DNA of 64,000 nt from Massalongia carnosa. Taxonomy: Eukaryota. Every line of letters begins with the position of its first letter. The first letter of the stretch is position 1. This document shows positions 7,835 through 64,000 of the stretch, piece after piece. The notes under the pieces were generated by a model. It was not told the origin of the DNA and ran no database searches. It saw only the letters and a program-made list of their open reading frames with translations. The stretch covers positions 1,364,001-1,428,000 of the forward strand of contig OZ287079.1 of the NCBI GenBank assembly GCA_965645245.1, given 5' to 3'. Both the position numbers and the translations under genes were made by a program.

Positions 7835-7858
7835 AACTCATAAAAATCAATTTCCTCA

Positions 7859-41683: not shown

Positions 41684-44600
41684 ACGCGGCGGGGGTAGAT
41701 GAGTTGGTTATCACATCTTTCTTTATGGAGGATGATTTATTCGATGACCATCCAGTAATGGAAGATTGTATCGTAGGAAATAAATTTAATACGAGAGCGA
41801 TGATTGATACTGGATCTACTGGTTATTGTTTTGTTGATAGACTAACTGCGCAGGAAATATGTGAAAAGGCTAATATCTCACCGGTGACGTTAAATAGACG
41901 GAAAGAGATAAAGGCATATGATGGAAGAAAAGGCAAGCCTATTACCCAGGCCATTTATCCATCTCTGAAAATTGGAAATCATACCGAGAGCTCAACACCA
42001 ATGTTGATCACCGAGCTGGGCCAACGAACGATTATTCTTGGCAAGCCTTGGATGCGAAAACATGGTGTTAGCTATCATGGGCATACGAATTCGATTTCTT
42101 TTCGTCCCGATCATTGCAATCATCTAGGTGCCCCTGAAAGGCCTTTCCCATCGTCGCCAATCAGGAGAGAAGAACCGGGCTCAACAAAGGACACCACGCC
42201 TATATTCCAACCAAAGAAGATATTGAAAAGAGACGAACCCGATGAAAAGAATCATAGCAACTCGAACCCGATTTCAGTTCGAAGATCAAGAAAGGAAGAT
42301 ATCTTGAAGCAAAAGTCTTGGAGAAAAGACGCCGAGAGCGAAGAAGCCCTGGATATAGCGATGATAGGTGCAGACCCATTTAATGTATTAACGAAACAAA
42401 AGGATGTCGAGATATTTGCAGTCTCGCTGAGAGATATCAACTTTGAACTAGCCAAGGGAGAAAAGCCAATCACCGATCCTAAGACCATAGTCCCCCCCGA
42501 GTATCACGATTTTCTTGATGTTTTCTCTAAGGAAAAAGCTGATGAACTGCCCCCTCATAGAAAGCATGACCATACCATCGAATTGCTAGAAGGTAAAGGA
42601 CCCGGGCATGCCCCGCTATATAATATGTCAGAGGGAGAACTCCTACCGGTCAAGAGATATTTGGAAGAAAATCTGAAGAAAGGATTTATTACAGCCAGCT
42701 CGGCCCCTTTTGCCTCGCCGATACTATTCGCCAAGAAACCGAGTGGAGGACTTCGGTTCTGCGTCGATTATCGAAAGCTAAACGAAATCACCAAAAAAAA
42801 TCGATATCCCCTACCTCTGATATCTGAGATAATGTCTCGATTGGCCAGGGCTAGATTTTTGACAAGAATAGATATTCGACATGCCTTTAACCGACTTAGG
42901 ATGAAAACCGAAAAGGACGAAGATCTCACAACCTTCCGCACGCGATTTGGGTCATATAAATCTCTAGTATTACCCTTCGGACTGACCAACGGCCCTGCTA
43001 CGTTTCAGAACTTCATCAACGATACCTTCTTAGAATATCTAGACGAATTCCTAATAGCCTATCTGGACGATCTCTTGGTTTATAGTGAAACCATGACTGA
43101 CCACCGAAAACATGTTCGAAAAGTTCTACAAAAGCTTCGAGAAGCTGGTATTCAGGCTGATGTGGATAAATGCGAATTCCATGTGACCGAAACAAAGTTC
43201 CTAGGAGTGGTAGTCGGGCGGAATGGGATCAAGATGGACCCTACCAAAATTGAGGCAGTCGTCGAATGGGCCATCCCTAGGCATCTTAAACAGGTGCAGG
43301 CCTTTCTAGGATTTATCAACTTTTATAGACGTTTTATCAAAGACTTCTCCAAAATAGCCAAACCCCTCGTACATCTAACTCGAAAAGACGAACCATTCAA
43401 TTGGACCCCAGCCTGCCAAGCAGCTTTTTCCGAATTGAAAAGACGGGTGACCGAGGCCCCGGTCCTCGCGCATTTCAGCCCAAGCCGAGAAACGTTCGTG
43501 GAATCGGATTCATCTGATTATGTGTCAGCCGGAGTATTATCGCAAAGAGGTGAAGATGGACTTATCAGACCAGTAGCCTTCTTTTCAAAGAGCCTGTTGC
43601 CAGCCGAATGCAATTATGAAATATACGATAAAGAATTGCTTGCAATAATCAAATGTTTCGAACAATGGAGGCCTGAGCTGCAATCCACCGAGCTCCCAAT
43701 CAAAGTGTTGACCGACCACAAAAGCTTGGAATATTTCATGACAACCAAAAAGCTAAATAGGCGACAGGCCAGATGGGCTGAATTTCTGGCCGATTTCAAT
43801 TTTGTCATCACATACCAAGCTGGAAAATTCCATACAAAGGCAGATGCACTAACTAGAAGACCAGGAGACAGGCCCGAATCAGAGGAAGATGACAGGCAAA
43901 GGCATCAACATCAGATAATCTTACCTCTCAAAAGCCTAGACCCTCAAATCCAAAAGGAAATGGGGTTTGAAATGAACGAGATCAACGCGGAAAAGTCGAA
44001 AGATCCGCTCGAGAATAATGCCAAACTATTTGTCCCCGAAGAAAAGAGAATGAAGCTGATACAGGAAGTTCACGATCAACCAGCCGTTGGCCATCCGGGA
44101 ATAAAGCGGACCTACGAGATGATGAAGAAATTCTTTTTTTGGCCAAAGATGAAAGGGACCATAGAACAATACATTCGAAATTGTCATACATGCAAAAGAG
44201 CAAAAGCTCCAAGGGACGGTTATTCCGGACTATTAAATCCGCTACCTATACCAGACCGGCCCTGGACAGATATATCAATGGATTTCGTAACTGGCCTACC
44301 TGAAAGCAAAGGTCATAATGCAATATTAATGGTAGTAGACCGATTTTCCAAGATGCATCATTACATTCCATGCACCACGGACGAAGAAGGGACAACTGCC
44401 GAAGAGACGGCCCGAATGCTAATAAAACATGTATGGAAATTGCATGGCCTACCGACCACGATAATCTCAGATAGGGGACCTCAATTCGTATCGCTAGTAT
44501 GGAAATCGCTATGCGTAATGCTGGGAATAAAAGCCAAGTTATCAACCGCATTCCATCCCGAGACCGACGGTCAAAGCGAAATATCCAATCAAGAAATGGA

Positions 44601-45366
44601 GCGATATCTGAGAACCTATGTCAATTATCAGCAAGATGACTGGACAGAGTGGCTATCGATGGCCGAGTTCGCATCAAATGCCTGTGTCTCAGCTTCAAGT
44701 GGATTATCTCCATTTCAGGTCAACTATGGGTTTGAACCGAGGATGAGCTTCTATCCGATTGACGCATCTACCGGATCGGCCAGAGAAAGAATATTGAAAA
44801 CTCGAGCAAAAAATATCGGCCAAGCAATGGAGAAAATCTGGGAATTCGGAAAAGAAAACCTAGTACGAAGCCAAGAAAGTCAGAAGAGATTCGCGGACAA
44901 TCATCGGGAGGAGGCACCAACCTATAAAGAAGGAGATGAAGTTTGGCTATCAACCAAAAATATCAAAACGGAAAGGCCTTCGAAAAAGCTAGATCATAAG
45001 ATGATCGGACCGTACAAGATATTAAAAGCTTTGGGGAATAGCTATAAGTTAGATCTTCCAGCATCGATGAAAATACACGATGTTTTCCATTCATCATTAC
45101 TCCGACCAGCAAGTAAAGACCCATTGCCCGGACAAATACCCCCGCCTCCACCACCAGTAATTATTGACAACGAGGAAGAATTTGAAATTGATGATATTTT
45201 GGATTCAAGAACTTTCAACAAGAAGCTACAATACAAGGTAAAATGGAGCAATTACCCACCGGATAACACATGGTATCCGGCCGAAGATTTTGCGAATTCA
45301 AAAGAAACTGTGGAAGAATATCATCGGAAATATCCAAAGAAGCCGCGACCGAAGCTAATCACATGA
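41659..45366 (+). CDS. pol: Pol (PR-RT-RNase H-IN-chromodomain), -1 frame relative to gag
   Basis: MIDTGS, YLDD, ESDSSD, HHCC zinc finger, SMDF/SDRG/E, GPY, YKVKW chromodomain. Confidence 0.97.
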   Translation, partial: GKRRTSVIDAAGVDELVITSFFMEDDLFDDHPVMEDCIVGNKFNTRAMIDTGSTGYCFVDRLTAQEICEKANISPVTLNRRKEIKAYDGRKGKPITQAIYPSLKIGNHTESSTPMLITELGQRTIILGKPWMRKHGVSYHGHTNSISFRPDHCNHLGAPERPFPSSPIRREEPGSTKDTTPIFQPKKILKRDEPDEKNHSNSNPISVRRSRKEDILKQKSWRKDAESEEALDIAMIGADPFNVLTKQKDVEIFAVSLRDINFELAKGEKPITDPKTIVPPEYHDFLDVFSKEKADELPPHRKHDHTIELLEGKGPGHAPLYNMSEGELLPVKRYLEENLKKGFITASSAPFASPILFAKKPSGGLRFCVDYRKLNEITKKNRYPLPLISEIMSRLARARFLTRIDIRHAFNRLRMKTEKDEDLTTFRTRFGSYKSLVLPFGLTNGPATFQNFINDTFLEYLDEFLIAYLDDLLVYSETMTDHRKHVRKVLQKLREAGIQADVDKCEFHVTETKFLGVVVGRNGIKMDPTKIEAVVEWAIPRHLKQVQAFLGFINFYRRFIKDFSKIAKPLVHLTRKDEPFNWTPACQAAFSELKRRVTEAPVLAHFSPSRETFVESDSSDYVSAGVLSQRGEDGLIRPVAFFSKSLLPAECNYEIYDKELLAIIKCFEQWRPELQSTELPIKVLTDHKSLEYFMTTKKLNRRQARWAEFLADFNFVITYQAGKFHTKADALTRRPGDRPESEEDDRQRHQHQIILPLKSLDPQIQKEMGFEMNEINAEKSKDPLENNAKLFVPEEKRMKLIQEVHDQPAVGHPGIKRTYEMMKKFFFWPKMKGTIEQYIRNCHTCKRAKAPRDGYSGLLNPLPIPDRPWTDISMDFVTGLPESKGHNAILMVVDRFSKMHHYIPCTTDEEGTTAEETARMLIKHVWKLHGLPTTIISDRGPQFVSLVWKSLCVMLGIKAKLSTAFHPETDGQSEISNQEMERYLRTYVNYQQDDWTEWLSMAEFASNACVSASSGLSPFQVNYGFEPRMSFYPIDASTGSARERILKTRAKNIGQAMEKIWEFGKENLVRSQESQKRFADNHREEAPTYKEGDEVWLSTKNIKTERPSKKLDHKMIGPYKILKALGNSYKLDLPASMKIHDVFHSSLLRPASKDPLPGQIPPPPPPVIIDNEEEFEIDDILDSRTFNKKLQYKVKWSNYPPDNTWYPAEDFANSKETVEEYHRKYPKKPRPKLIT

Positions 45367-45800
45367 CAGCGATCAGGAGCTCGCTAACCAAGAGGGGGGG
45401 TAGTGTCAGGACTCGGGTGTGGGAGCGCTAAATCCAACGGCTCTTTCCGACCGAAGCTTCGGAGATAAGCTTCTAGAGCCGGATGGAAACTTCGAGAAGA
45501 AGGGCAAACGGGCATATAGATTTCACATTCTTCTTTGTAGATAGATTTCTCTTCTTCATGCTTAGTCTCTTAGGTAGCTGACTACTATTCGTCTTCCCTG
45601 GATAGTGGTTCTTACAATAATCAAAATTCTAAGATTCTATCTTCTTTATCTCGAAATTCTCGAAAACGTTCTACATCCTCGAACGACCCTCTGATTACGT
45701 AATTCGGGTTAGGCGTTGTTGAGTTATCGGCTATTGCTAAAAATAATCGGACAAATTATTTTTCAAATTATTTTTTGTCTAATTAGTATTACTCAGTCAA

Positions 45801-46383
45801 CGATCGCATAACAGGCGCCTATACACAGGAAAAGACTTAAGGCACACAAGTTACTAGACAAAGCGCAAAGCTCACTAGTAATACAGATAAGAACGGAAAA
45901 AATCGGACTAGCCAACTTTCTATATCGGCGCAAGGTGCCAGATGTGAACTCGGCGGCATGTCCCTGCGGAAGCCTCTTACAAACAGCCAAACATGTAATC
46001 ATGTTCTGCAGACTGCACGAAAACAGAACGCACATGCTACGAACGGCAGGCTCGTCAGACTACCGCATGCTAATCACCGAACCTAAAGATCTTAAAGTAG
46101 TAACCGCGTGGCTCATGTGCACAGGTATTTTAACACAGTATTCCATTGCTACGCAACTGCTTGAACAGCAGCCGGGCAGTCTCTCTTTAGTTTGAAAAAC
46201 AGGTATCGCAGATTTTCGATATACAGGAATCAATCTGCGGGAGCGGCGAACCCCCGATGAAGCGGATACGCCGGAGTAGTTTTTCACCTTTGGGTTTTCT
46301 ACTTATTATATAGCTTATATAGCATCTCCCGCATGGGCCGGCCATCGGCCGGTAACACAACGGCGTAAGAATAATAAAATCAA
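45801..46383 (+). mobile_element. 5'-truncated LINE 3' end
   Basis: IQIRTEKIGL..CPCG..QTAKHVIMFC; stem-loop; TSD ATTACTCAGTCAA at 45788-45800 and 46384-46396. Confidence 0.9.
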
Positions 46384-46692
46384 ATTACTCAGTCAATTCT
46401 AGTCCAAAAAGGTAATTTTTTGTCATTTTATAGCTCTTATTCTGAAGTACTTTGTGATATAATATACAAAATTTGTAACTAAGACTGAAGTTTATATCTT
46501 GATCCGACAGAAACCCGAAAATTTGTCAAACGGTCACTCTAAAAGTGTAGAGCGCTTCGAGAGCAGTAAGTTAATCACGAGCGACACTGATCTCGAAAGG
46601 GGAAATGCTCAGCGTGAGAGGTAGAAGATAGCTACTACGTGCTGGTTTCCGAGAGTATACGTGATCCAAAGAACTAATGGATATAGAAGTGC

Positions 46693-48454
46693 TGTTATGA
46701 TCTACCTAGAGACAAGTCATAGGGACACTAGAAACGAATACAATAAAGATAAAGAAGGAAAAAGACAATCGACAACCAGAACCTGCCCCTATATATCCTC
46801 TACTGCGCTAGTACCCATGTGGTATAGTCGTCATGGAACCTTCTAGCAGCTGCGGGAACGAAATCGAAAGCGCCTGCGTGTTCCATCTACGATTGCCCTA
46901 GGCGGTGCCGAGTGCCGAGGTCGTGCCGTGTAGAATCGTGACACTACCCTTCGCTTTAAATCGCGATCACCTGAGCGCGAACTAGGCGGTGCAAGCGGTG
47001 CAGGCAGTCAGTAGTCAGCGGTGAAACTGGTTCATTAGCTGAAGTGCTTCCGATTCTTTGCCAAGGTTTCCCGTGTCTTTCCAAGCTCTTTCGTCGATTT
47101 TCCGGTAATTTCGGTGCAGTCAGTACTTTGGTGTCTGGGGTCTGGTGTCTGGTGTCTGGTGCCTGCTGTCTGGTTTCTGGTGTCTAGTGTCTGGTGGTTC
47201 TGGTTCTGGTTCTGGTTCTGGTTCGTACGACTGGCCTAACTAGTGCAAGGGTCGCTCGTTGTCGTTCCGATGTGGGGTTCTTTTACATCCGCCACCGAGG
47301 ATGGTTCTTCTGGGTCTGGGTGGTTCTGAAGGTTCTGGTGGTTCTGGTCCGTACGACTGGCCTAGTGCAAGGGTCGCTCGTTGTCGTTCCGATGTGGGTT
47401 TCTTTTACATCCGCCACCGAGGATGGTTCTTCTGGGTTCGAGTTCTGGGTCTGGGTGCCACGCTGTAGGGGTGGCGGCCTTCTGGTTCTGGTTCAGGGTG
47501 ACTGGCCTAGTGAAAGGGTCGCTCGTTGTCGTTCCGATGTGGGTTTCTTTTAAATCCGCCACCGAGGATGGTTCTTCTGGGTTCTGGTTCTGGGTCTGGG
47601 TGACTGGCCTAGTGCAAGGGTCGCTCGTTGTCGTTCCGATGTGGGTTTCTTTTACATCCGCCACCGAGGATGGTTCTTCTGGGTTCGGGTTCTGGGTCTG
47701 GATGCCACACTGTAGGGGTGGCGGCCTTCTGTTTCTGGTTCTGGGTCTGGGTGCCACGCTGTAGGGGTGGCGGCCTTCTGCTTCTGGTTCTGGGTGACTG
47801 GCCTAGTGCAAGGGTCGCTCGTTGTCGTTCCGATGTGGGTTTCTTTTATATCCGCCACCGAGGATGGTTCTTCTGGGTTCGGATTCTGGGTCTGGGTGCC
47901 ACGCTGTAGGGGTAGCGGCCTATTGGTTCGGGTTCTGGGTCTGGGTGCCACGCTGTAGGGGTAGCGGCCTTCTGGTTCTGGTTCTGGTTCTGGGTGCCAC
48001 GCTGTAGGGGTGGCGGCCTTCTGGTTCTGGTTCTGGTTCTGGGTGCCACGCTGTAGGGATGGCGGCCTTCTGGTTCTGGTGGTTCTGGCTCTGGTTCGTA
48101 CGACTTGCCTAATGAAAGGGTCGTTCTTTCTTCAGTCCTCGATTCGGTGAGTTCTTTTACATCCCTCACGTAGGATAATAGATGAAGACGATCTTTATTG
48201 TAATGTTATGATCTACCTAGAGACAAGTCATAGGGACACTAGAAACGAATACAATAAAGATGAAGAAGGAAAAAGACAATCGACAACCAGAACCTGCCCC
48301 TATATATCCTCTACTGCGCTAGTACCTATGTGGTATAGTCGTCATGGAACCTTCTAGCAGCTGCGGGAACGAAATCGAAAGCGCCTGCGTGTTCCATCTA
48401 CGATTGCCCTAGGCGGTGCCGAGTGCCGAGGTCGTGCCGTGTAGAATCGTGACA
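46693..48454 (-). mobile_element. Family-B non-autonomous LTR element (251-bp LTRs) with tandem-repeat interior, inside a family-A LTR fragment
   Basis: LTRs at 46693-46943 and 48204-48454, TSD AGTGC, purine tract AAAGCGAAGGGTAG on minus strand. Confidence 0.92.
47130..48110. repeat. Compound tandem repeats (~120-190-bp modules built from TCTGGT/TCTGGG hexamers and two longer motifs)
   Basis: Recurring GACTGGCCTAGTGCAAGGGTCGCTCGTTGTCG.. and GGTGCCACGCTGTAGGGGTGGCGGCC. Confidence 0.9.
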
Positions 48455-49499
48455 AGTGCTTAGATCAAGAGATCTCGTCTAAGACCCAAACTTAGGTTGT
48501 TTATAGAATTACGCCGCGCAACGGGTTGGGTTAAACCCGTCGGGTTTGGGTCGGGTTTTCGGGTCGGTTTGGACTCCCTCGAACCCGACCCGACGGGTTC
48601 GGGTTATTTATGCGGGTTTCCGGGTTAAACCGTTCAACCCGGTCAGTTTTTTCTGCAAATACATCGGGAAATCGGGAGATGACTAATAGATCTTAATAAT
48701 TAAATACCGTATTAATTAACATTTAAGACCCTGGTTTTATAGGGGGTAGTCCGTCAAAGGGTTAATTAGAATAGTATTTTATAGATAGGGGGTTTTTATA
48801 GGTAGGGGGGTTTTATAGGTGGGTGAGGTTTTATAGAGGGGCTAGAGATATTAGTCAGCTGGAGAGACAACGCGAAAACGCATAATAATTTAATATTTCT
48901 CCCCGATATTTCGACCTTTGGATGGGACAAAAGGCTAGAAACATTGATGGATTATGTTTCTGCATATAATGTGAATAGGTGCAAACCTCTTCTTATATTT
49001 CAGGGTCAAGATGTCGTCAAGAACAGTCGCATTTTCAGGTCACGCACGTCCTGACATAAGCGAATCGGTAGTTATAACCGATCTCCGATCTCCGACTAGG
49101 ACACGGCTCGTGTTCGTATTCTTCTTTTCATTGTACCAATCATAATTACTGTAATTAAATCAACGGACTCGCGACCCGAAGAAGTGGGGCTATAGGATAA
49201 AGACCTGATCACCCACTTCTTTCGAGGGGTCACTAATCAATTTATTGATTTACCACTCTCTACTCGTACATTCATCACGAATCCATATAGTAGTCACGCT
49301 GTTAGACTTGACTCCTTACATTTTAATCAGTCTAATATCCTAGTAACAGCCCGACGATGCTATGGTACCCCGACGTGCGACTTCAGCTGTGGTGAGAGGT
49401 AATTCCTCTGGAAACAACGAGTCGGACACAGTGGAAAACACGCCCGACTCCGGGACGACTAACCCGCCTCTGTCCTCTATAGACGATATGCAACGTGAA

Positions 49500-50529
49500 T
49501 GTAATACGGATGGCGCTAGAGGGATACGTGCTCGCCTATGGCGGTTGCGGGATTAACTAGCGTGGACCATGCCGTAGGACAAAGTCGCATAAGCCGTCGA
49601 GGCTGACACACTGCCATCTTGCCCCGAAACTTCGGAGTTATTGTTATCACGTTCTTGACTACTTACAGATCAAACACCTGTCGAGGCCGTGGTGGTAGAT
49701 TGCCATGGAGTGTAAGGCGGACTCCTGTGGAGACGCCAAGGAACTCTATATGGGATCTACTGGCCTACTCGGAGCTACTGGATCTCTTGATGGATCAAGA
49801 GAGGTAGCAGGAGGCACGGCTCGCTGGACGCAGCTTGAGCTAGGCTCCCTGGTGTAAACTTCAGCTTCAACCTTTATTACTACGTTGGTAGTGATGTCGG
49901 CTGAATGAACCTACATGACCTCATTGTCTAGACCTTGTGTCTAGAGGCAGGTCCGCAGTGTAGCGAGGTATTCAGTCGGAGGTAACCTTCCATCACTAGG
50001 TAGTGGTGACGGCGAAATGAAGCTACATAGCCTGAGGCATGTAGTGAGGGATCTAGCCGGGGGTAGAATTGTTCTACCTTGCAAGGGAAGATCTAGAAGG
50101 CTGCTCGAGGCTGACTAGATGATCCAGCGAACGCCGAGTTCGTGGATGGATCCTGAGGGATGGTTGGATGTAATGCGATAAAGTCGGATGTGGATTGCAA
50201 GGCTGTAATGCTCGCAAGACTCCCAAGGCTTGCAAGGCTCCTAAGGTTCCAAGGCTCCCAAGGCTATAGGCTTGGGGTGAGTAGGATAAATATCAGAACG
50301 AATCTTGTAGTATTCGTTAGCAATTAGTCTTTATTCTATGAACAACCTACGTTTGGGTCTCGGACGAGATCTCTTGGTCTAAGCACTTCCACATCCATTA
50401 GTTCTTTGGATCACGTATACTCTCGGAGACTAGCACGTAGTAGCTATCTTCCTCCTCTCACGCTGAGCATTTCCCCTTTCGAGATCAGTGTCGCTCGTGA
50501 TAAGCTTACTGGTCTCGTAGCCCATTACA
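49500..50529 (+). mobile_element. Family-A solo LTR inside gag
   Basis: TSD GTGAA. Confidence 0.92.
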
Positions 50530-53268
50530 GTGAATTAGACGAGATAAACGCCCAAAGACAACGCGTCCAGCTGGCTACTAGTCTAGAAAAAGCCAGAGCA
50601 GACAGAGACGCCGGATTCCCCGCCAAACTCCCCGACGACGTTGACTATTCGTCCGAAGGAAATCGACCCATTGAGTCTTGAAAAATCGTTCAAGACTGCT
50701 GACCAAAGACCTATACAGGAACTAATCAGAAGGACTACGAACAATTCGTCAGAGAATGTCTGCGTACCTTCAATCAAAACCCATCACCTATGAAAAGAAC
50801 ACAACAAAGGTCTTGTATGAGGAGAATTATATTAGACGAACACTAGCAGATGACTGGCATAGAGAGAAGCCCACACTTGATGAATCTTCTCTTACCTGGA
50901 AATATTTTGTTGACTTTCTCCTGGAAAAGCTAAAACCAAAATATCTTCGTCTATTGGATCTCGGAGGACAATTGAAGAAATTAAAACAACGACCAGGACA
51001 AACAGTGTCGGAGTTAGTTTCTTATCTCGACACACTGGAAGATCAACTTCCAGAAATACCTTCCGAATTACAAAGACATAGTAATCTTCTACATTCTCTT
51101 TATGATTATCTACAGAGAGCTATTATTCGAGCTAATTCTCAGGGCACAACACGACTTGCATTAATTGAAGCGGCCCGAGTATCAGAAAGAGTGGAACCTA
51201 AACCCGATTTCGTTCGGAACGCCACTCGTCCCCATCATCGATCTACAAACGAAGAAAGGCTGCAGAGGGCCCCGAGTCACCAACGAACCGTGACCTACAA
51301 TAAGGCCTCGAGTTCAAAGACGAGCGAAACTTCCGAGGCTAGTTCCGCTCAAGCAGCCGTTACCTCCCCGAGTCGTAAACGACCCCGAGAAGACACCACC
51401 GACTCTCCAAAAATCACTTGTTGGAATTGTGGTAAGAAGGGTCGTAAAAAATCTGACTGTCGAGCCCCAACAAGGAAGACGGGAAAAGCTTAGAGGTAAT
51501 CGATATTGCCTCGATTGTGTTGGCTCGTAAAAAGAGAGGTGAAAAAATAAATCACTTGTTTACTATGATAACTTTATATCTAGGACCAGTCGTACTACGA
51601 ATTCGGGCCATGATTGACTGCGGCTCGACATGGAATTTCGTGTCACAACTCAAGGTCAAAGAACTCGGTATCCGATTCACCCCCGACTCGCCACCGCCGT
51701 CCGATTTAAAGACTCTGGATTGAATACCTCTGCGTGCCTATCGAAATCACTCCCTACTAGTTGGGGTTGTTGATAGTAGGGGTATTGAGGATCGAACGGA
51801 ACATAAGTTCGTGGGTGCTGACGTGTTCGGGGTGGAGATGATACTAGGCCTACCCTGGTTAAATTGGGTGGACCCGGTTATCCGCTGGCATGAGCGCAAA
51901 TTGTTCCATGTTCGTCGGACCAAAAGTGGCGACGATGGGGCTTGTCTGCATGAGATTTTACCTCTCGAGACTGAAAGGCCTGTCGAGGGGGGGTTTACCC
52001 CCCCCCCCCCCGAAGTAAAAATACCAGTAGTCAAGCTGACGTAGCGATGGTGAGCAGGGACGAAATTTGGGATATTTGTGAAAATGATGGAGTTCAGGCA
52101 TTCCTTTTAGATATCGAGAAGCTCGATCGGGCAGGGCCCGTAGTCGGTTCGGTGACGGAGTTTACAAATGAAATTCCTTCCAAATATTCGGATTTTCATG
52201 ACGTCTTTTCGAAAGATAATACACAGAAGTTGCCTGGACATGGACCTCAGGATCATGCTATCGATACGGAAGGAAAACAGTCTCCATTCGGCCCAATATA
52301 CAATTTATCCTTGACCGAGTTACAAATATTACGGGAGTACCTCGACCAATATTTGGCCAAAGGATTTATAGTTCCTAGCACTTCATCGGCCGGTGCTCCT
52401 ATTTTATTCGTCAAGAAAAAGGATAGTGGTCTGAGACTATGTGTTGATTATCGGGGGCTGAACGCTATTACCATCAAAAATCGATATCCTTTACCCTTGA
52501 TCATGAACCTATTAAATGTTCTTATTGGCGCCGTCTACTTCACTAAACTCGATATCCGGGATGCATATCATAAAATCCGGGTACGGGCCGGTGACGAATG
52601 GAAAACGGCTTTTCGATGCAGGTACGGTCAATTTAAATACCGGGTTATGCCTTTCGGACTAGTCAACGCCCCTGCGTCATTCCAGGCCTACATAAACGAA
52701 GCCCTACGTGAATATTTAGATGACTTCGCAGTGGTGTACTTGGACGACATTTTGATATTCTCTAAATCGATGAAAGATCATACATTTCATGTCCGACTAG
52801 TCCTGGAGAAATTACGGAAATTCAGTCTACAGGTGAAATTATCCAAGTGCCTCTTTGACCAGACTGAAATTGAATTTCTGGGATTTATTGTAAATCGGAA
52901 TGGTATATCTATGGACTCATCTCGGGAGACGACGATTATAGATTGGCCTGAACCCAAAAATCATCGAGATGTTCAAGTATTTCTCGGGTTTGCAAATTTC
53001 TATAGGCGATTTATCAACGAATTCTCGCGCATTGTGGCCGCCTTAACGACGCTACTAAAAGGGGGAAAGAAAGGAAAGTTCGATATTAAATTCTCATTCA
53101 CCGAAGAAGCAACAGAATTATTTCGTCGTCTCAAGCATGCTTTTACCACCGCTCCTATATTATTGCATTTTGACCCTAAGGCGAAAATACAATTAGAGAC
53201 GGACGCGTCCGGAGTCGCGATTTCAGCTATTTTATCACAATTGGTTGAATCGACGGGACAGTGGCATC

Positions 53269-53839
53269 TGTAACGGTTCGACCAAGCGTGGTGCGGACGG
53301 CAGGACCTACAGCAAACATAACAGGAGACCCAGCTATAGTAGAATAGAGCTTGGTCTGCGGACTAAGTATTGTGCCTTTTGGTCGGGAAGGACAGGTAGC
53401 GCAATGGTAGAAATCTATTCACTATCTCGCTTCGTCACAGAATACTTAGTCATCAATCGGTGTACTAGTCGTGAGTTCGATTCCTGACCTGAGTTCCTCG
53501 CTTTTTCGCCTTGCTTCGACGGACTGAAGCTAGGACGAAACGGGAAAGCGTTGGATGAAAACTCTCTAAGTCGGATCGGCGAGGGCGGTACGCTAAGAAG
53601 AGCCCATTCTTCGGGGCTAACTATAACTGGAAGCGGCTAGGGGCTAGCCGCAGCTAGACGGGCGGTAGTGTAACGGTTCGACCAAGCGTGGTGCGGACGG
53701 CAGGACCTACAGCAAACATAGCAGGAGACCCAGTTATAGTAGAATAGAGCTTGGTCTGCGGACTAAGTATTGTGCCTTTTGGTCGGGAAGGACAGGTGGC
53801 GCAATGGTAGAAATCTATTCACTATCTCGCTTCGTCACA
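53269..53839 (+). mobile_element. Complete TRIM (571 bp; 171-bp LTRs at 53269-53439 and 53669-53839)
   Basis: TG..CA, TSD GCATC, purine-rich AGACGGGCGGTAG before 3' LTR; removal restores QWHPIAFWS. Confidence 0.95.
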
Positions 53840-54812
53840 GCATCCTATTGCTTTTTGGTCAAGAAAAATGCATGCAGCCGAATTAAACTACGGTGTTGGC
53901 GAAACAGAAATGTTGGCCATTGTTGAAGCATGTAAGGAGTGGAGACATTATCTTGAGGGGGCGATACATTCGATTCGGGTAATAACCGATTATTGTAATC
54001 TTCGTACCTTTCTTACTACCAAAAATTTATCTAGACGAGAGGCGAGATGGTGGGAAAGACTTTCTAGTCTTGATCTCGTTATTGAATATCGTCCAGGTCG
54101 TCATAATCCAGCCGATGGACCCTCTAGACGCCCGGATTATATGGAAGAAAGGCACGACTTGTCTTATCAAGCCGGAGCTATAATTCCTGGAAGATTCGGG
54201 GGGGTCTCGGAGAGGAATCTGGGTGGGATAGAGGAGCTCATTACGTCAAATTAGAGAATGGCCCTTGTAAATGATGAATCTCAAGTAGCTGACGATGCTA
54301 TGGACTGGGAATCTACTATAAATGAATTATCAGACGGGGCAAATCGCAATTTGATGAGTCCACCCGTTGTCGACAAAAATTGTCGGAGTACTGCGCAGGC
54401 CCAACAAACCACTGAAGGAATTGGAATTGATTCGGCTGAAATTGTCGAAATTTCTGAAATTCTTGCGGTTGTTGGAAGAACTAAGGGGACAAAATCAGGA
54501 ACTAGTTCCGATACCTCTCAGTTACAGGAGAAATTGATTAATTTAAAATCAGTTGGACTCAAACTCGTGGAAACTTTGGATGAGAAGTTTGAAATTTCTC
54601 GGAAAGAGATAAAAAATGTCTCTGAGAAAGACTCGGCGTTTGGGGCCGCCCCAGTAGAACTACGCACCGTTTTACAAATTCTGCAAGAGCCTGATCAACT
54701 AGTGCAGAAGAAACGGCCCTCCATCGCATCGTCGATGGATGAGGGGCGGAATTCTATAGGACGACTACATGACGCGTCGAGGGATAAATCGGGGGGTAAC
54801 GAAGACTCGTCA

Positions 54813-54972
54813 TGTGACGAAGCGAGATAGTGAATAGATTTCTACCATTGCGCCACCTGTCCTTCCCGACCAATACTTAGTCCGCAGACCAAGCTCTATT
54901 CTACTATAACTGGGACCTGCTATGTTCGCTGTAGGTCCTGCCGTCCGCACCACGCTTGGTCGAACCGTTACA
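54813..54972 (-). mobile_element. TRIM solo LTR
   Basis: TSD CGTCA. Confidence 0.9.
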
Positions 54973-57853
54973 CGTCAGGCTCTCAGGTCCGAGACGGACG
55001 CGAGTCGGAGGGCGAAGTCGAAGGAGACCCAGAAAAAACCCGATGGCACATGAAGGATAATATCCTCTGCAGGGACAATAGGTGGTATATTCCCCCTGGT
55101 CTATTACGTGCTGAACTTTTGCGGCAGAATCATGATGATCCCAATGCGGGCCACTTTGGTTATTCCAGAACGTTGGGATTGATCCAGAGGAAATAATATT
55201 GGCCCGAAATGGTAAAGGACATCAAGCATTATGTGGAAACGTGTACTCGTTGTCATCAAGTTAAATCGTCCAGACATAAGCCCTTCGGATTATTAGAATC
55301 CCTACCCGTACCAAAAAGGCCTAGACAAAATTGGACGATAGACTTCATAACGGATCTGCTCCCGAGTCTCCGCCGAACCGTGTGTCAGGACCTGCCATAA
55401 AGACTACGGAGAAGGATACGGAAAAGGGGCATCAGCATGGACTCGGCCGCCGAACCCGGCCCGACCCTAATGGGCTGATTCCGCTGTCGGCCACATGCCG
55501 TCGAGGGGGGACGGCTGGCGAGGGGGACGGCTGGAAACCCATGTCGGATGGCACTAACCGCCCAAAGGGGCCGGGAGCCATTTGGACTAATCAGATAGCT
55601 GGGGGCTATCCGATAAGGGAGTCTTAGGGGGAGACACGTCTGTAGGATAAAGAGGTCGATGCCCACCTTATTCTAAGGGCATAGATCAATAACATACATT
55701 ATTGAGTTACCCCCTTCACGTGACCAACACGCCCTCTGAGTAGAAGCATACGTCTTACACTTTGATCTATCCAACCTTCTAGGGAGCCCGTTGGTCATTC
55801 CTCATTACCTCGACATTTCAACCTATGGTATTAACTAGATCGCAAATGTCTTCGTCCACCGCTTCCGGGGCGAACCCGACACCTAACCCGGACGAGACCC
55901 TAATTTCCGCCACCATGGCAGACATGCAGCGAGAAGTTGAGGCCATTGAGGCTGAATGGAAGCAGGCGCACCTAGCCAAAACGCTGGAGGACCTGAAGAA
56001 GGAAATGGCCGCCGGCTTCCCCACTCTCACGGATCGAACCAAACCCGTCGACCCGCTGGCCCTGGAAAGGTCTCTTCGTTCCGTAGACCCGACGACCTAC
56101 GCCGGCGACAATCAGCGGGCGTTTGACACATTCCTACGTGACTGCAAGAGAACTTTTCTGCAGAAGCCAGTCACATACGAATCGCCCTCGGCACAGGTCC
56201 TCTACGCCGAGAACTATCTATGCGGAGCCCCTGCCGACGATTGGCACCGTGAGAAGGAAGCGACGACGAAGGCGGCGGAAGGTGAGCTCACCTAGAAAAT
56301 CTTTGCTGACTTCCTCCAGGAAAAGCTCAAACCGAAGCATCTACGCTTGATGGATCTGGGGGGAACAACTGAAGAAATTACGCCAATTCCAGGGGCAGAC
56401 CGTGTCCGATTTTGTCACATATCTGGAAAGCCTAGAAGCTCAACTCCCCGAACCCCCCACGGAAATGCAGAAGCATTCCAACCTCCTACACAGCGTGCAC
56501 GACTACTTGAAGACGGCTGTGATCCGGGCGGGTAGTCAGGGGACGACCAGGGCGGAACTGGTCGAGGCGGTGAGGATTGCGGAAAGGGTTGAGCCAAAAC
56601 CCGATGGATGGAAGAAGACTTTCAATAAAAGCCGGAATCAAAATCGAAACAATCAATCTTCCTCAACCCCCAAACCTGAAGAAGATGGACCCGCTGACGC
56701 TCCACAGGCACCCGTGATTAATCCGAACCACCAATCAAACAAAAGAAAGCTGGATGATCAGGAAGATCAGCAAGATCAAGAAGCCCCGCCCCCTACGAGA
56801 CCAAAAGGAAATCGGTCGGATAAGGATTGCTGGAACTGCGGGAAAATGAGGCACCTTCAATTCGAATGTCGGTCCCGGCCGTCGCCGCGGGGATCGTCCC
56901 GCCGGCCGGGAAAAGGTCGGGGCCAATAGACGTTGCCTCCGTCGTATTGGCCCGGCAAATGAGGAAATCCCCATGCCGCCACCTCTTCTCAACGGTTTTC
57001 CTATATTACGACAACAGTCAGCATCGTGTCCGAGCAATGATCGACTGCGGAGCAACTTGGAACCTTATCGCTCAAACCTGGCTAAATGAGGTAGGTGTTC
57101 GAGATCCTCCCGGCTCCCTTCCACCATCTGGGTTGAAAACTCTCGATGGAACCCCCTTCCAGACTTATTTTGATCATGCCCTGCGCGTCGGGGTTGTTGA
57201 TGACAATGGTCTTGAGCGAGTGGCCGAGCAGGCATTCGTCGCGTCAGACATGTATGGGGTGGACATGATCCTGGGCTTGCCCTGGTTGGGTCATGCCAAT
57301 CCATCCATCGGCTGGCGCGAAAGGAGGATAATCCATGAAAGCCACCTCATCGAGGGTGAAGTACGAGATGACCTGCCAGGGGAACGTCCCGGGGTCACTG
57401 TAGGCGATGAGGAAACCCCTCATCGAAGTAGCAATCTCCCAGTAGTGGCAATGGTGAGTGAGCAGGAGATCTTTGACATCTGCGAATGCGAGAGCGTCGA
57501 CGCATTCCTAATAGACATTCGGGAAATGCTCGGTGGGAGCCCGGAGAGTCGGAGTCAATAGTTGGTGCCATCTCTACGTCTAGCAATAAACTTCTGCCTC
57601 TGTATCAATCCTACAGTGACGTCTGCTCCAATGAAAAAGCTTCAGTGCTACCAGAACGAGGGCCCCACGACCATAAAATCAATCTGGAAGGCGAACCACC
57701 CCCGACCCGGGCCATGTATAACCTCTCCCTCACCGAACTAGAAACCCTAAAAGACTACATCGACGACAACCTGGCAAAAGGGTATATTACCCATAGCACC
57801 TCACGACTAGGCGCGCCCATCCTATTCACCAAGAAGAAATATGGTAGTCTACG

Positions 57854-58089
57854 TGTTGAATAGGTCTATGACTATGGCTATATGACTATGTAAAGATAGG
57901 GGCCTGTATGACCATGATGTTAAGGATGCAGAGTTGCTACGGAGTGCAGAGCAATCTGTTCCTTTTATCTTGGTCACCTCTGCTAAGCGAGATGATAATA
58001 GTTTATCCGAGCCTCCATGCGATTAGATTAGATCTGATCTTATCTAATCTATCGGCTAGGCAATGCTGGTAGAAGTTGAACATTCAACA
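57854..58089. mobile_element. Family-C solo LTR inside RT
   Basis: TSD CTACG; removal restores SLRLCVDYR. Confidence 0.92.
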
Positions 58090-61000
58090 CTACGTCTGTG
58101 TCGATTATCGGGCCCTAAATGCTGCTACGATTAAGAATAAGTACCCTCTACCCCTGATCCAGGGGCTGTTCGACATCGTCAGCGGGTCGGCTATCTACAC
58201 CAAGTTGGATTTGAGGGACGCATACAACACCCTCCGAATCGCCGCCGGGGACGAATGGAAGACGGCCTTCAGATGTAGATATGGCCATTTTGAGTATAGA
58301 GTCATGCCCTTCGGACTGGTCAATGCCCCCGCCTCCTTTCAAGCGTTCATTCACGAGGTGTTGAAAGAGAATCTCGACCAGTTCGTAGTAGTATATCTTG
58401 ACGACATCCTCATCTTCTCCAAGACGGAAGAGGAGCATTCGGGCCACGTTCGATGGGTTCTGGATCAATTGCGGAAATGGAAACTACACGCAAAGTTATC
58501 GAAATGCATCTTCCACGCGTACGAGCTGGACTTCCTGGGCTACATACTCTCCCGAAAAGGCATCGCCATGGACCCAGGACGAATTTTTACGGTGACGCAA
58601 TGGCCGGAGCCGAAATCTCATCGAGAAGTTAAAGTCTTTCTTGGATTCGCCAACTTCTATAGACGCTTCATCAAAGGATTCTCGCGCATAGTGGCGCCAA
58701 TCACTTCCTTGCTGAAAGGTGGGGACAAAGGCCGTTTCCGGGGGAAGTTCGTGTGGACGGACAAGGCAAAGGGGGCTTTTGAGGCGTTAAAAATCGCGTT
58801 CACTAGCGCCCCAATGTTGCTGCATTTCGATCCTGCAAGGCGTATTAAGCTCGAGACGGATGCGTCAGATTTCGCCCTATCAGGAATCCTCAGTCAACTA
58901 GTCGAAGAAACGGGCCAATGGCACCCGATCGCCTTCTGGTCCCGGAAAATGACCCCTGCAGAAATCAATTATGGGGTCGGGGAGAAGGAAATGTTAGCAA
59001 TCGTGGAAGCGTGCAAAAATTGGAGACACTATCTTGAAGGGGCAAACTTCCCCGTCAAAGTGCTCACCGATCATGGAAACCTTCACACCTTTTTCACAAC
59101 CAAAACACTATCTAGACGCGAAGCGCGTTGGTGGGAAAGACTATCCAGTCTAGACCTACAGCTCGAGTACAGACCTGGTCGGAATAATCCGGCAGATGGA
59201 CCCTCGCGACGCCCGGACTACGCAGGGCCAGGCTTGCATCGTCAAGACGAGGCCACACTGCTGGGTCAGGGGGTCGTCGGGGGGGAAAGCGAGGTATATC
59301 AAACGAGAGCAGATGAAGTCGGTCAAGGGCCGAAGGAATCCTTCGTCTTCAACAATACTCCACCGGAGACGCGCACGGAATCCTCAATTGCTGTCGTAGG
59401 GATGGATACCACCCCGAATGCTGCACGGGCGTCGGATCCTGATATCCAGGCGGCAATGAGAAGGACCAAGGGGGGGAAGAAAAAGGGCAAAAAGCCTGCC
59501 CCTCCGAAGTCAGACGAGACCGCGGCTGACTCCAAGCCTGTGGGATTCCGACTCGTCGAGGCCGAGAGGGACTCGGACACATTAAGCCAGCGCGTCCTAG
59601 ACGTGACTGAGTCGGAAGCTGCCTTTGCATCGCCCCCCCTGGAACTCAGCACCGTCCTTCGTATTCTTCAAGAGACTGATCACCTTGCGAAGCGAAGACG
59701 GCCCCTCGCCGCATCGTCGTTGCAGGGAGAGCTGGATCAGGAAAGGGACGGTCAGAGGCAGCCCGCCGAGGGAACGGAGGGGGTCGCAGGAGACGACCTT
59801 CCTGCCGATGAGAAAGAAGACGGGCTCTGGCATCTCAAAGATGACATCCTCTGTCGAAATAACAGGTGGTATATACCGCCTGGATTGCTGAGAAACGAAC
59901 TGCTAAAAAGGAATCATGATGATCCAAACGCAGGGCATTTCGGTACCCTCAGAACGACAGAACTTCTCTAACGAAAATACTACTGGCCCCGAATGGTCCC
60001 TGATGTCAAGCACTACGTTGATACCTGTACTCGCTGTCATCAAGTCAAGGCAGTCAGGCATAGACCATTCGGCGAATTAGAATCCTTGCCAGTACCTCTG
60101 GGTCCAAGACAGAATTGGGCACTAGATTTCATTACGGATTTGCCCCCGAGCATCCGCCGCACCCTTATTTTTGATGCAATACTAGTAATTGTTGACAGGT
60201 ATACAAAGTACGCCCGATACATCGCGGCCAGGAAAGACTGGACGGCGGAGAACCTTGCCGACGCCCTGGTAGAAGAAGTCTTCACCCGCTTTGGAATGCC
60301 GGTCTCGCTGGTGACCGACAGGGGAAGCCTGATCACCTCGAATTTCTGGTCCAACTTCTGCTATCATCTGAGGGTACGGCTCAATTACAGTACGGCCTTT
60401 CACCCCTAGACCGACGGGCAAACGGAACGTCAAAATCAGACGTTGGAACAGTACCTTCGTTGCTACGTCAATTATCAACAAGACGACTGGGTGTACTGGC
60501 TACCGATGGCAGAATACGCCTACAACAACAGTCGGCATAGCGTACTGAAAATGTCCCCATTCGAGGCCCTTTTCGGAGAGGCACCGAGGTGGGAGGAGGA
60601 AATAACGGAAACCGAAAAGGAAACGCCAGCAGCGAAAGACAGGGCGATAGAAACGCTCGAAAAGAGACGTCGTCTCGAAACTCTGCTGCAAAAAGCATCA
60701 GCAGATCAAGCTAAGTACTACAATCAGAAGCACACCCCGATGACCTATCGGGTCAAGGACAAGGTACTACTTAATGCTAAAAACATCTCATCTACTAGGC
60801 CTTCAAAGAAACTGGACTATAAATACTACGGTCCTTATGAGATAACCAAGGTTATAGGAAAGCAAACGTATCGTCTGAAACTACCGCCGCTACTAAAAGG
60901 CGTCCACGACGTCTTTCACGTCAACCTTCTAGAACCATACAATGAAGACTCAGCAAGAGGTCCTGAGCTCCCCCCGGCCATCGAGGTCGACGGCGAGGAG

Positions 61001-61399
61001 CAATACGAGGTGGAGGAGGTACTGAGCAGTCGAATCCGATACGGGAAACTGCAATATCTGGTCAAATGGAAAGGATATCCGGATTCGGACAATCAATGGC
61101 TGTCATTGGAAGACATGGAAGGGTCACAAGACCTAATTAGGATTTATCATCGGACATACCCATCGAACCCGTCGAAAAGCGGGGAAAAGAGAAGAAAGAT
61201 AAGCAAATAGATCTTTTCCCATACCGGGCATGCGAAAAATATAATCTTATCTTATCGACCTAAGACACAGTTAAGTAAACAGCTTTGATTATTGCTAAAA
61301 AGAAAGCTAGCTACCCCTCATGATCCGACACCTGATCCTCACCCTCCGGGACGGTCACGGGAAGCCCCTTTTCCCACCGAAGTAGGGCGTCGGTCTCAA

Positions 61400-61869
61400 A
61401 GGCCTGCCGTCGGATCTGCGCAAGGGCATCTAGTCCCTCCACGCTGTCGGTTTTCAAGGCCTTGGCACGGGCGCGCTCCCAAATGGCCACACGGGCGACA
61501 TATCGCTCATGCTTGGCAGCGAGAGCAGCGACCGGGCCCGATTTGGGGTCGGCAGGTTGTTAATGGCGGTTGCCTCTTACAGCAACCGAAGGACCGTCCG
61601 CCGAAAAGGAACTGGGATCGGGCGACAAACCTCCTTTCGACGAATGCAATCAGCGCACTTCCCCGAGGCTGGTTATCGGTGGTGCAGTTGAAATTAAGTT
61701 CAGGATTGTGTTGGGAACACCGATGGCAGAGAGAAGCCTCCGAGGTGGGGCCGACCCATTTGGGAGGCACCCGCACCGCTGCAGCAAGGGGAGGAAAGTC
61801 GGGCAAATGGACATCGTACGCTCGGGGTGGCCGACGGCGACTGGCGGCGGGGGGTGGTACATCAGACAT
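61400..61869 (-). pseudogene. Antisense Cys6 zinc-finger-like ORF of the inner Gypsy
   Basis: PPKWVGPTSEASLCHRC..C..(1-nt shift)SGKCADCIRRKEVCRPIPVPFR; 3' end approximate. Confidence 0.7.
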
Positions 61870-63679
61870 AATTGGGAAATTGGAGGATTGAACTGATGAA
61901 AAGTAAGTCATGGATTGGGGACTACTGAGGGGAGATAGACAGGCCAAGTGGCTACTTATGCTCGAATTACTGGCATTACGAGGGCATCCGACAACAAAGA
62001 ATATCACCAACAACGAAAAGAAGATATCACGTGAGTCGAAGCCTCCTGCGACATGAGCCCTAGGGGGAGGATAATGTCAGGACCTGCCATAGAGACTACG
62101 GAGAAGGATACGGAAAAGGGGCATCAGCATGGACTCGGCCGCCGAACCCGGCCCGACCCTAATGGGCTGATTCCGCTGTCGGCCACATGCCGTCGAGGGG
62201 GGACGGCTGGCGAGGGGGACGGCTGGAAACCCATGTCGGATGGCACTAACCGCCCAAAGGGGCCGGGAGCCATTTGGACCAATCAGATAGCTGGGGGCTA
62301 TCCGATAAGGGAGTCTTAGGGGGAGACACGTCTGTAGGATAAAGAGGTCGATGCCCACCTTATTCTAAGGGCATAGATCAATAACATACATTATTGAGAC
62401 ACCCCCTTCACGTGACCAACACGCCCTCTGAGTAGAAGCATACGTCTTACACCGTGGCATATGATGCGATTCTTGTCATGGTGGATCGGTATACCAAATA
62501 TTCTCGATATATTCCCGCACGAAAGGACTGGAATGCTGAAATCATGGCTGACGTCCTAGTGGAAGAAATATTTACCAAATTCGGTATGCCAGTGTCTATT
62601 GTCTCGGATAGGGGTAGTTTATTCACCTCAAAGTACTGGTCTCATTTCTGTTATCATTTGAGAATTCGACTCAGTTACAGTACAGCCTTTCATCCACAAA
62701 CGGATGGTCAAACCGAGAGACAAAATCAGACACTGGAACAATATCTACGATGCTACGTCAATTATCAACAGGATGACTGGACTTACTGGTTACCCTTGGC
62801 AGAATTCGCTTATAATAATAGCTTACATAGTGTCATAAAAATGACCCCCTTCGAAGCTATATTTGGAGAAGCGCCCAAATGGGAAGATGAAGTTCTGACT
62901 GAAAAGGGGTCCGAGGTTCCTGCTGCACGCGTCCTGGCTACTGACATAATAGACAAAAGAAAACACCTGGAGAAATTATTACAAACAGCTTCAAGTACCC
63001 AGGCTAAATATTATGATCAGAAACATATTCCCAAGACGTATAATGTGGGTGATAAAGTCCTCCTGAACGCAAAAAATATTAAATCCACTCGTCCGTCCAA
63101 AAAACTGGACTACAAATATTACGGGCCATACGAAATTGTCTCTCCTATAGGAAAACAGGCCTACAAACTCCAACTTTCTCCGTTATTGAAGGGTATTCAT
63201 AATGTGTTCCATGTTTCCCTATTGGAACCTTATAGATATGACCCGAACAAAATATCTGAACCGCCTCTACCTATAGAAGTAGAAGGGGAAGAACAATGGG
63301 AGGTAGAACAGGTGCTGGATAGTAGAATTCACTATGGAAAACTCCAATATCTAGTGAAATGGATGGGATTTTCTGATACGGATAATCAATGGTTATCCGT
63401 AGAAGACATGGAAGGATCACAGGAATTAATTATTTCCTATCATAATCAATATCCGGAAAAACCTTCCAGAACTCCTACGAGGAAGAAAAGAAAATCGAAG
63501 GTATGAACCATTTCCATTGGAGTCGAATGATCCAGGATCAGACTGCTATCTACCACACCACAACCACCTTCTCTCACCCCTTCACCCCCTTTTCAATCCA
63601 CCAAAATATCCTCCCCTGGAGGGGGTCCAACCTCTAATCCGGCCTAAAAGTGTCAAAAAATGATTAAATTAATTCGACA

Positions 63680-64000
63680 CTAGATCTCCACCAAGAGATG
63701 AGCCACCGAGCAGCGGAAATTGACTGGAACCTACCCAAATTAGATCAAATTTTCCATAACAGAGCTCCACCTACCGGAAAACATTTATCCTTCTTCCGGC
63801 GACACTCCCCACACTTCCCCGACTCCTCGGACCACTCACAGGCGACAGGGTCGCCCCCAAGGGTCTGCTTGGCACACCGGAGGCAAACGCTTACCTCCGG
63901 GGTAGGCCCCACCCAAATGGGCGGGTGGAGGAGCGGAAAAGGGGGAGGCAGAGGGGAACCGCCACGAACCGGGGCGGAAACGGGTGGCGCGGCGGGGGAA
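63680..64000 (-). CDS. Antisense Cys6 zinc-finger-like ORF of the outer Gypsy (partial), predicted intron 63731-63774
   Basis: PPIWVGPTPEVSVCLRC..C..SGKCGECRRKKDKCFP|VPVNFR. Confidence 0.7.

Follow-up and report, generated by a model that had tools for sequence, protein, structure and literature searches.

Some long terminal repeat (LTR) retrotransposons of plants and fungi are known to have an additional antisense gene downstream of pol and upstream of the 3′ LTR. In plants, such open reading frames (ORFs), termed aORF-3R, occur in maize Grande (gene23), rice RIRE2, Silene Retand, and Phaseolus PvRetro13, and the excerpts of PMC7264820 available to us describe them as family-conserved, without clear database similarity, and with proposed nuclear or regulatory roles; the antisense gene of maize Grande has its own upstream promoter according to the same excerpts. 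Among fungi, Boty of Botrytis and Sclerotinia has the antisense gene brtn in this same interval, as mentioned in parts of PMC7264820 and PMC8365987, and a Boty-like element comprising gag, reverse transcriptase (RT), integrase (IN), and chromodomain (CHROMO) regions plus brtn is outlined in a passage of PMC4227169. Here, we analyze a further example of these rare antisense genes, which is carried by two nested Ty3/gypsy chromoviruses at the end of a 64,000-nucleotide (nt) stretch of Massalongia carnosa DNA (GenBank assembly GCA_965645245.1, contig OZ287079.1, positions 1,364,001 to 1,428,000 of the forward strand). We refer to this whole stretch as the window, and all positions below are numbered within it. 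An earlier inspection of the bare sequence, which we call the original prediction, had proposed a conserved cysteine-rich antisense gene in both elements.

The gene described here has the same location and orientation as the plant aORF-3R. It differs from them in that they belong to Tat-type and other plant lineages and encode unrelated proteins (PMD, Tr28, and SMC-like) that are far longer than ~100 amino acids (aa), and the available excerpts on the plant genes report no six-Cys domain. With brtn, it shares an antisense position behind pol in a fungal chromodomain-containing Ty3/gypsy element, a likeness drawn from published descriptions of brtn. The original brtn paper is reportedly that of Zhao et al. 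in Virology in 2011. Antisense genes are also found in complex retroviruses, with HBZ and HIV-1 ASP as examples; these likewise encode a minus-strand accessory protein near the 3′ end and involve antisense splicing, but they belong to animal retroviruses, encode unrelated proteins, and have a known promoter in the 3′ LTR. For human T-cell leukemia virus 1 (HTLV-1), antisense transcription from the 3′ LTR is noted in the excerpted text of PMC7264820.

Two nested chromoviruses and their antisense reading frames

The last 14.5 kb of the window contains two nested Ty3/gypsy chromoviruses, in which the inner element interrupts the integrase of the outer element. In both elements, Pfam detects RT, RNase H, integrase zinc-binding and core, Tf2-type SH3, and Chromo domains. 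The inner element (55383-62451, plus strand) is flanked by a 5-bp target site duplication (TSD), CCGTG, and its two LTRs are 377 bp each and 98.9% identical. The inner 5′ LTR (55383..55759, plus strand) has the TSD just upstream, at the insertion point within the outer integrase, while the inner 3′ LTR (62075..62451, plus strand) has TG..CA ends and is followed by the second copy of CCGTG. A polypurine tract (PPT), AGGGGGAGGATAA (62062..62074, plus strand), abuts this 3′ LTR. The C-terminal part of inner pol, with the integrase SH3 domain and chromodomain, lies at 60410..61210 (plus strand), and that of outer pol, with the integrase core, SH3 domain, and chromodomain, continues after the inner insertion at 62452..63506 (plus strand), where 63506 is the end of its stop codon. 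The probable 5′ LTR of the outer element (49500..50529, plus strand; 1030 bp, TGTAAT..ATTACA) stands directly before the outer gag-pol, and its 3′ LTR is past the end of the window. In the integrase-chromodomain region, the inner and outer proteins are 70% identical, compared to 44% for a third chromovirus at 39907-45619, and by this measure the inner and outer elements are the closest relatives of each other in the window. Both are defective, with pol split into several ORFs. Within inner pol, a 239-bp segment at 57854-58092 matches 37535-37773 in reverse orientation (95.8%), and the inner pol frames are broken in part because of this small insertion.

The two Cys-rich ORFs that had been proposed on the minus strand behind pol were both found in place. 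Each element has a minus-strand ORF of ~97 to 99 aa in the interval that separates the pol stop from the PPT and 3′ LTR. In the inner element, the order is pol stop (61210), antisense ORF (61577-61869, minus strand), PPT, and LTR. The inner ORF runs from an ATG at 61869 to a stop codon at 61579-61577, which is 367 nt from the pol stop, and it is intronless and has ~97 codons if it is read through a 1-base shift. This shift, also recognized in the original prediction, falls at or beside a G4 run (61661..61664, minus strand) between Cys3 and Cys4, such that frame A terminates in ..NQPR and frame B picks up at KCADC... In the outer element, exon 1 (63775..64000, minus strand) encodes the Pro-rich N-terminal part, PPxWVGPT, and the six Cys, and it exits the window, with its start codon beyond 64000. 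Exon 2 (63680..63730, minus strand) contributes 16 codons from VPVNFR and the stop codon (63682-63680), which is separated from the pol stop by 174 nt. The outer frame agrees with a database protein, P0004 (94.6% identity over 74 aa), and alignment to this protein suggests that the outer start lies ~10 codons past the end of the window, which would give a protein of ~99 aa compared to ~97 aa for the inner one.

When read on the minus strand, the outer copy encodes PPIWVGPT..C-x2-C-x11-C-x8-C-x2-C-x6-C-F-P up to 63775, and the inner copy encodes PPKWVGPT..C-x2-C-x10-C, followed by the frame change and then by KC-x2-C-x6-C-R-P-IPVPFR... Common to both copies are PPxWVGPT, the six Cys, and a (V/I)PVxFRxxVxxLL tail, in a protein laid out as a Pro-rich N terminus of ~40 aa, a six-Cys domain, and a short conserved tail. 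Over both copies, the Cys spacing is C-x2-C-x10/11-C-x8/9-C-x2-C-x6-C; the original prediction had the second loop right at x8/x9 and gave the first as x9/x10, which we correct to x10/x11. The second Cys half includes a basic stretch, C-x2-C-[RI]-R-[KR]-K-x2-C. When the window was translated in all six frames, W[VIL]GP was seen three times, in the two ORFs and in an unrelated WLGP at 20165, and the C..C-x6-C.P motif occurs solely at the two ORFs.

The 44-nt intron that had been proposed for the outer copy also held up on closer analysis. Located at 63731..63774 on the minus strand, it has a GTAGGT donor, a CTAAT branch motif at intron positions 32 to 36, and a TAG acceptor, so that its splicing signals are intact; it contains an in-frame TGA, and its length is not divisible by 3. 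Excising exactly these 44 nt brings the outer tail, VPVNFR.., into gap-free collinearity with the inner read-through, IPVPFR... We examined 154 GT..AG candidates of 30 to 150 nt around this site and found that 2 of them restore the tail, with only 63774..63731 retaining all six Cys.

We also observed an 82-aa ORF at 61311-61559 (minus strand) that looks helical by eye; it uses a third frame and occupies the interval from the inner antisense stop to the pol stop. The outer element, with only 174 nt in this interval, lacks an equivalent, and the ORF has neither a Pfam match nor a second copy in the window. It may once have extended the C terminus of the inner gene, or it may be open by chance in DNA that is rich in G+C. 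A second intron linking the inner ORF to this 82-aa ORF was rejected, as a GTAAGA donor at 61580 combined with either downstream AG keeps the old frame and fails to join the two ORFs. Searches of 61000-64000 with Rfam (E ≤ 0.1) and Tandem Repeats Finder gave no match.

Protein-level constraint and relatives of the gene

The DNA of the two copies is as divergent as had been thought. In a sensitive blastn comparison of the post-pol spacers, the inner and outer elements showed 58 to 61% nt identity over ~140 nt, confined to the ORF, and the same comparison found no other match to these spacers in the window. Across 66 aligned codons, 34 specify identical aa at a nt identity of 58%, and the identity at codon positions 1, 2, and 3 is 62%, 71%, and 41%, respectively. 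For these codons, the Nei-Gojobori (NG86) ratio of nonsynonymous to synonymous substitution rates (dN/dS), a check suggested along with the original prediction, is 0.32 for this one pair, with dS saturated. We also compared the proportions of nonsynonymous and synonymous differences (pN/pS) in all six frames over 47 ungapped codons. The claimed frame is stop-free and has the lowest ratio of the six (pN/pS 0.405; Fisher P = 6.9e-6), while the other five have ratios of 0.51 to 2.0 and four of them contain stops. In the integrase-chromodomain part of pol (266 codons, 70% identity), pN is 0.19 and synonymous sites are fully saturated. In this one pairwise comparison, then, the antisense ORF is changing faster than pol yet is clearly constrained at the protein level. 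Together with the database relatives described below, this bears out the earlier claim of a conserved, protein-coding antisense accessory gene.

The two families also differ in base composition. The G+C content is 39 to 44% in outer pol (62436-63506), 44 to 53% in inner pol (60410-61207), and 51% in the outer antisense-ORF stretch. Between these two pol segments, the apparent synonymous difference is above saturation (pS 0.98), a sign that base composition or codon use has shifted from one family to the other.

With exon 1 (75 aa) as the query and no length limit, an exhaustive run of phmmer over 1.84 billion protein representatives returned three matches, two of which are real. P0001 (215 aa, 92% identity, E 3.8e-32) belongs to the outer family, and P0003 (166 aa, 62% identity, E 1.7e-12), which comes from a 1.5-kb contig and retains PPKWVGPT, the six Cys, and the basic stretch, represents a third lineage. 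The remaining match, P0002 (1877 aa, 47% identity over 17 short stretches, E 2.7e-16), was rejected as spurious, since it has a repeat resembling the LLHPPIWVGP stretch and no Cys pattern. Two more proteins came from a word-seeded search, P0004 (representing a cluster with six sequences) and P0005, both from Mb-scale contigs and both of the outer family, which is thus represented by three 90% clusters (P0001, P0004, and P0005). None of these four proteins has a name or a Pfam domain. Word-seeded searches with exon 1 among proteins of 41 to 132 aa found no relative, and those with the P0003 core found nothing beyond P0003 itself. The antisense ORF is, then, seen in two diverged elements of the window and in four database proteins of two lineages. 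The scarcity of relatives, with two clusters in 1.84 billion proteins, probably reflects annotation that masks or misses small antisense ORFs in repeats.

All four of these database entries are rough ORF predictions. P0001 and P0005 run into the intron, P0004 stops exactly at C-x-P, and P0003 stops three residues later, these residues starting with a Val (GTN) codon. In all four, the likeness to the inner tail ends right after C-x-P, which is where the outer intron starts. Because the similarity breaks off at the intron position in each of them, two of the three lineages probably have the intron, while the inner one lacks it. In the third chromovirus of the window (39907-45619), the gap between pol and the LTR is 37 nt and holds no antisense ORF. 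Since this element lacks such an ORF, the gene is, as far as the sequences compared here indicate, restricted to one chromovirus clade and not general to chromoviruses.

The six-cysteine domain and alternative readings of the gene

The original prediction had noted that the six Cys recall fungal Zn2Cys6 domains, whose canonical spacing is C-x2-C-x6-C-x5-12-C-x2-C-x6-8-C. Like the Zn2Cys6 proteins (Gal4, Pho7, Put3, and Leu3; PF00172), the antisense protein has six Cys in two CxxC-led halves, modelled helices, a basic stretch of the C-x2-C-R-x-K-K-x-K-C type, and a fungal source. We obtained AlphaFold models, a step proposed with the original prediction, for the outer core (mean predicted local distance difference test [pLDDT] score, 59) and for P0003 (mean pLDDT, 58, with 79, 86, and 74 by block in residues 141 to 166), and both show a short helix after each CxxC. 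Foldseek comparison to 350,542 PDB chains gave three matches for the first model and seven for the second, and all 10 are zinc-cluster DNA-binding domains, among them Pho7 (twice), GAL4, PUT3, Leu3, and 1cld. The last of these is labelled simply as a DNA-binding protein in the PDB match list, and we take it to be the LAC9 cluster. The best match has an E value of 0.88, a probability of 0.44, and a root mean square deviation of 2.5 Å over 41 columns, and Zn2Cys6 domains are the only structural neighbors found, at a nonsignificant level. The second Cys half, C-x2-C-[RI]-R-[KR]-K-x2-C, resembles the DNA-contacting first half of Gal4-type clusters.

Other evidence counts against a zinc cluster. 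At E ≤ 10, Pfam gave no family match, Zn_clus included, for any of six sequences (four window pieces, P0001, and P0003), and NUP159, the sole row returned (E 0.12), was discarded as noise. A profile search of PDB sequences yielded only nonsignificant matches, to LIM domains (E 0.38 to 0.41) and to an odorant-binding protein (E 1.7). The Foldseek E values, 0.88 to 9.6, are all nonsignificant, and the two models, both of low overall confidence, derive from one common 5-row alignment and so are not independent. The first Cys loop, with 10 to 11 residues, is 4 to 5 residues too long for a canonical Zn2Cys6 domain, while the other loops fit, and the basic residues fall in the second half and not, as is canonical, in the first. 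CGG-Nx-CCG-type sites are the usual Zn2Cys6 targets; CGG-N0-12-CCG occurs six times in the inner LTR compared to 2.4 expected, a count reached in 16 of 300 shuffles, and does not occur in the outer LTR, so that the LTRs show no consistent enrichment and lend no support to binding sites of the protein's own. Unlike Zn2Cys6 regulators, the ~98-aa protein has no evident linker and coiled-coil dimerization element or regulatory domain, and, unlike PF00172 proteins, it is encoded by a transposon and not by a host regulator gene and lacks a hidden Markov model (HMM) match. The earlier comparison thus stands as a set of lead-level structural likenesses, and it does not extend to the HMM or to the first loop. 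We do not class the protein as a Zn2Cys6 member, since it departs from that family in both spacing and HMM. As for whether it is a Zn2Cys6-like nucleic-acid-binding module, the models and motifs leave us evenly divided.

A competing interpretation is that the domain is a different zinc module, which could be a ribbon or treble clef built on four Cys, the remaining two being additional, or could be related to DUF3716, and that it makes protein or RNA contacts. The failure of the Zn_clus HMM and the wrong length of the first loop fit this interpretation, as does the LIM domain at the top of the PDB sequence matches (E 0.38). An Atlas feature search, in which scores below 0.9 are leads only by the calibration of the tool, placed small unnamed hypothetical proteins of Ascomycota nearest (0.87 to 0.88, with 174 to 186 of 256 features shared), and the only Pfam-named neighbors were DUF3716 (0.78, with the domain in 28% of the cluster members) and DUF8257/DUF8414. 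In Zymoseptoria tritici, the REP9 transposon has two genes with DUF3716, as stated in a passage of PMC8232023. Like the antisense protein, DUF3716 proteins are small, fungal, and encoded by accessory genes of a transposon; in contrast, REP9 is a class II element, and the DUF3716 HMM (PF12511) did not match any of the six sequences at E ≤ 10. With the Atlas scores remaining leads and all 10 structural matches being zinc clusters, we regard a different zinc module as possible but doubtful. We are similarly tentative about the most specific claim, that this chromovirus clade encodes its own Gal4-type (Zn2Cys6-like) DNA-binding protein in antisense, with a fungal spliceosomal intron that survives retrotransposition. 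Within the limited literature collection that we searched, no zinc-cluster (Zn2Cys6) gene was found in an LTR retrotransposon, and searches there aimed at antisense ORFs of fungal gypsy elements gave no papers.

For the gene as a whole, we lean toward a genuine element-borne antisense accessory gene of one fungal chromovirus clade as the account that best fits the sequences at hand. Several points speak against this account: the gene is known here from genomic and protein sequences alone; the selection test is a single pairwise comparison with saturated synonymous sites, confined to one pair because three lineages are known; the Pro-rich N-terminal frames differ within the outer family (P0001 and P0005 compared to P0004 and the window); and P0005 lacks WVGPT. 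These frame changes and the loss of WVGPT indicate, therefore, that many copies are decaying. Such decay, as well as the defects of both window elements and the frameshift of the inner copy, would also be seen if a fragment of a host Cys-rich gene had been captured once by the common ancestor and persisted as a roleless passenger, and the small Ascomycota proteins nearest in the Atlas could be host genes. Neutral cargo, however, would be expected to lose its frame over the divergence at which synonymous sites in pol are saturated, and instead the frame, the six Cys, the N-terminal motif, and the tail are kept (pN/pS 0.40), with the same features in the third lineage at 62% identity, so that we find a passenger quite improbable.

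We give still less credence to the idea that the functional product is an antisense RNA, acting at the 3′ end of pol by convergent transcription or by double-stranded RNA or small interfering RNA control of copy number, with the ORF being incidental. Regulatory antisense transcripts are discussed for several retroelements in the excerpts of PMC7264820, the ORF region is richer in G+C than the adjoining outer pol, such sequence leaves frames open by chance, and long ORFs exist on both strands at 61289-61896. In contrast, the third positions are the least conserved and the pN/pS is the lowest of the six frames, which is the pattern of a translated frame; moreover, intron removal restores both frame and homology, and Rfam found no match at the threshold used. 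The ORF could also be a diverged homologue of the brtn family, in which case only the host would be new. Its position, orientation, and element type are like those of brtn in the Boty-like elements of Botrytis cinerea and Sclerotinia sclerotiorum, as far as these are described in the excerpts, and a Monilinia transcript is said, in part of PMC5987419, to resemble truncated Pol and BRTN alike. The exhaustive protein search gave no named relative, however, so that BRTN, if it was included, is not detectably similar to the 75-aa query. In addition, neither the LTR lengths here (377 and 1030 bp) nor the elements are those known for Boty. We consider this homology unlikely, if less so than a passenger or an RNA product.

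Genomic surroundings and possible role

The window contains several other repeats. Further copies of the 1030-bp LTR are at 38133-39162 (99.3% identical) and 25771-26726 (reverse orientation, 89 to 93%), and 38133-50529 is either a single element or a set of solo LTRs. The third chromovirus (39907-45619) has LTRs of ~213 bp that are 100% identical and uninterrupted gag (40319-41683) and pol (41632-45366) frames, and it was probably active recently. A short repeat family with units of ~170 and ~385 bp, 86 to 98% identical and present in both orientations, has copies at 9300-9476, 10173-10747, 37305-38132, 39163-39548, 53262-53840, and 54812-54973, with several copies within outer pol, and looks like a miniature inverted-repeat transposable element (MITE)-type element. 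Direct repeats of 251 bp at 46693-46943 and 48204-48454 (99%) enclose tandem repeats with spacings of 49 to 194 bp (47189-48094), and the whole (46693-48454) may be a small non-autonomous LTR-type element. A non-LTR-type retroelement is present in two copies, 1655-3702 and 13415-15462, that are 96.5% identical over 2 kb, and the second lies within an 834-aa ORF (12728-15229) with RT and RNase H domains. Pieces of a Tc1/mariner-type transposase (15521-15961 and 20065-21069) and a Mutator-like element (MULE) transposase (23689-25467, minus strand) were also found. A tandem array of 9- and 12-nt units at 7829-8176, with 23 overlapping copies reported, encodes a PRP/PPR proline-arginine repeat. 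The remaining genes are a Spo7-like gene (27926-29134, minus strand), an alpha/beta hydrolase gene (30272-31432), and ORFs with an NDC10_II domain (33389-35234, minus strand).

If the gene is expressed, its promoter would be expected in the 200- to 450-bp spacer upstream of the ATG, as in maize Grande, or in the 3′ LTR, as in HTLV-1. The inner antisense ATG lies inside the internal region, 205 nt from the LTR boundary at 62075, and the intervening spacer (61870..62074, minus strand; 205 nt) is a candidate promoter and 5′ untranslated region. For the outer family, the sequence ahead of the antisense start has no similarity to the 1030-bp LTR for at least 465 nt. These positions lend no support to the transcription from the 3′ LTR that had been put forward in the original prediction. 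Antisense transcription from either source would converge with that of gag-pol, toward the part of pol that encodes the chromodomain. Introns on the antisense strand go unrecognized when they are read as sense genomic RNA, and reverse transcription copies them faithfully; because of its antisense position, the intron described here would be inherited in this way and kept through each retrotransposition. The six-Cys domain probably binds zinc, perhaps as a Zn2Cys6-like binuclear cluster, and may bind nucleic acid, and the small basic protein would then probably act in the nucleus, as accessory proteins of other retroelements do, on the transcription or expression of its own element, on integration, or on silencing. 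The regulatory or anti-silencing role put forward in the original prediction is, for us too, a conjecture. Because both elements are damaged and the inner copy is frameshifted, the two loci in the window are most likely remnants of a gene that is functional in active members of the group.

Little is understood of the accessory genes in LTR retrotransposons, and brtn is apparently the sole fungal antisense example in print. A second fungal family would give a concrete handle on the function of such antisense genes, as it offers a predicted metal-binding-type domain, an intron, and clear signs of constraint on the protein. From a basic domain that resembles a zinc cluster, binding to nucleic acid is predicted, and the presence or absence of the intron marks the evolution of an antisense gene inside an element that replicates via sense RNA. 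If the zinc-cluster interpretation is true, a retrotransposon would carry a member or distant cousin of the most typically fungal transcription-factor fold and would steer its own transcription, targeting, or silencing with a Gal4-type protein, and zinc-cluster domains could pass between such elements and host genes in either direction.

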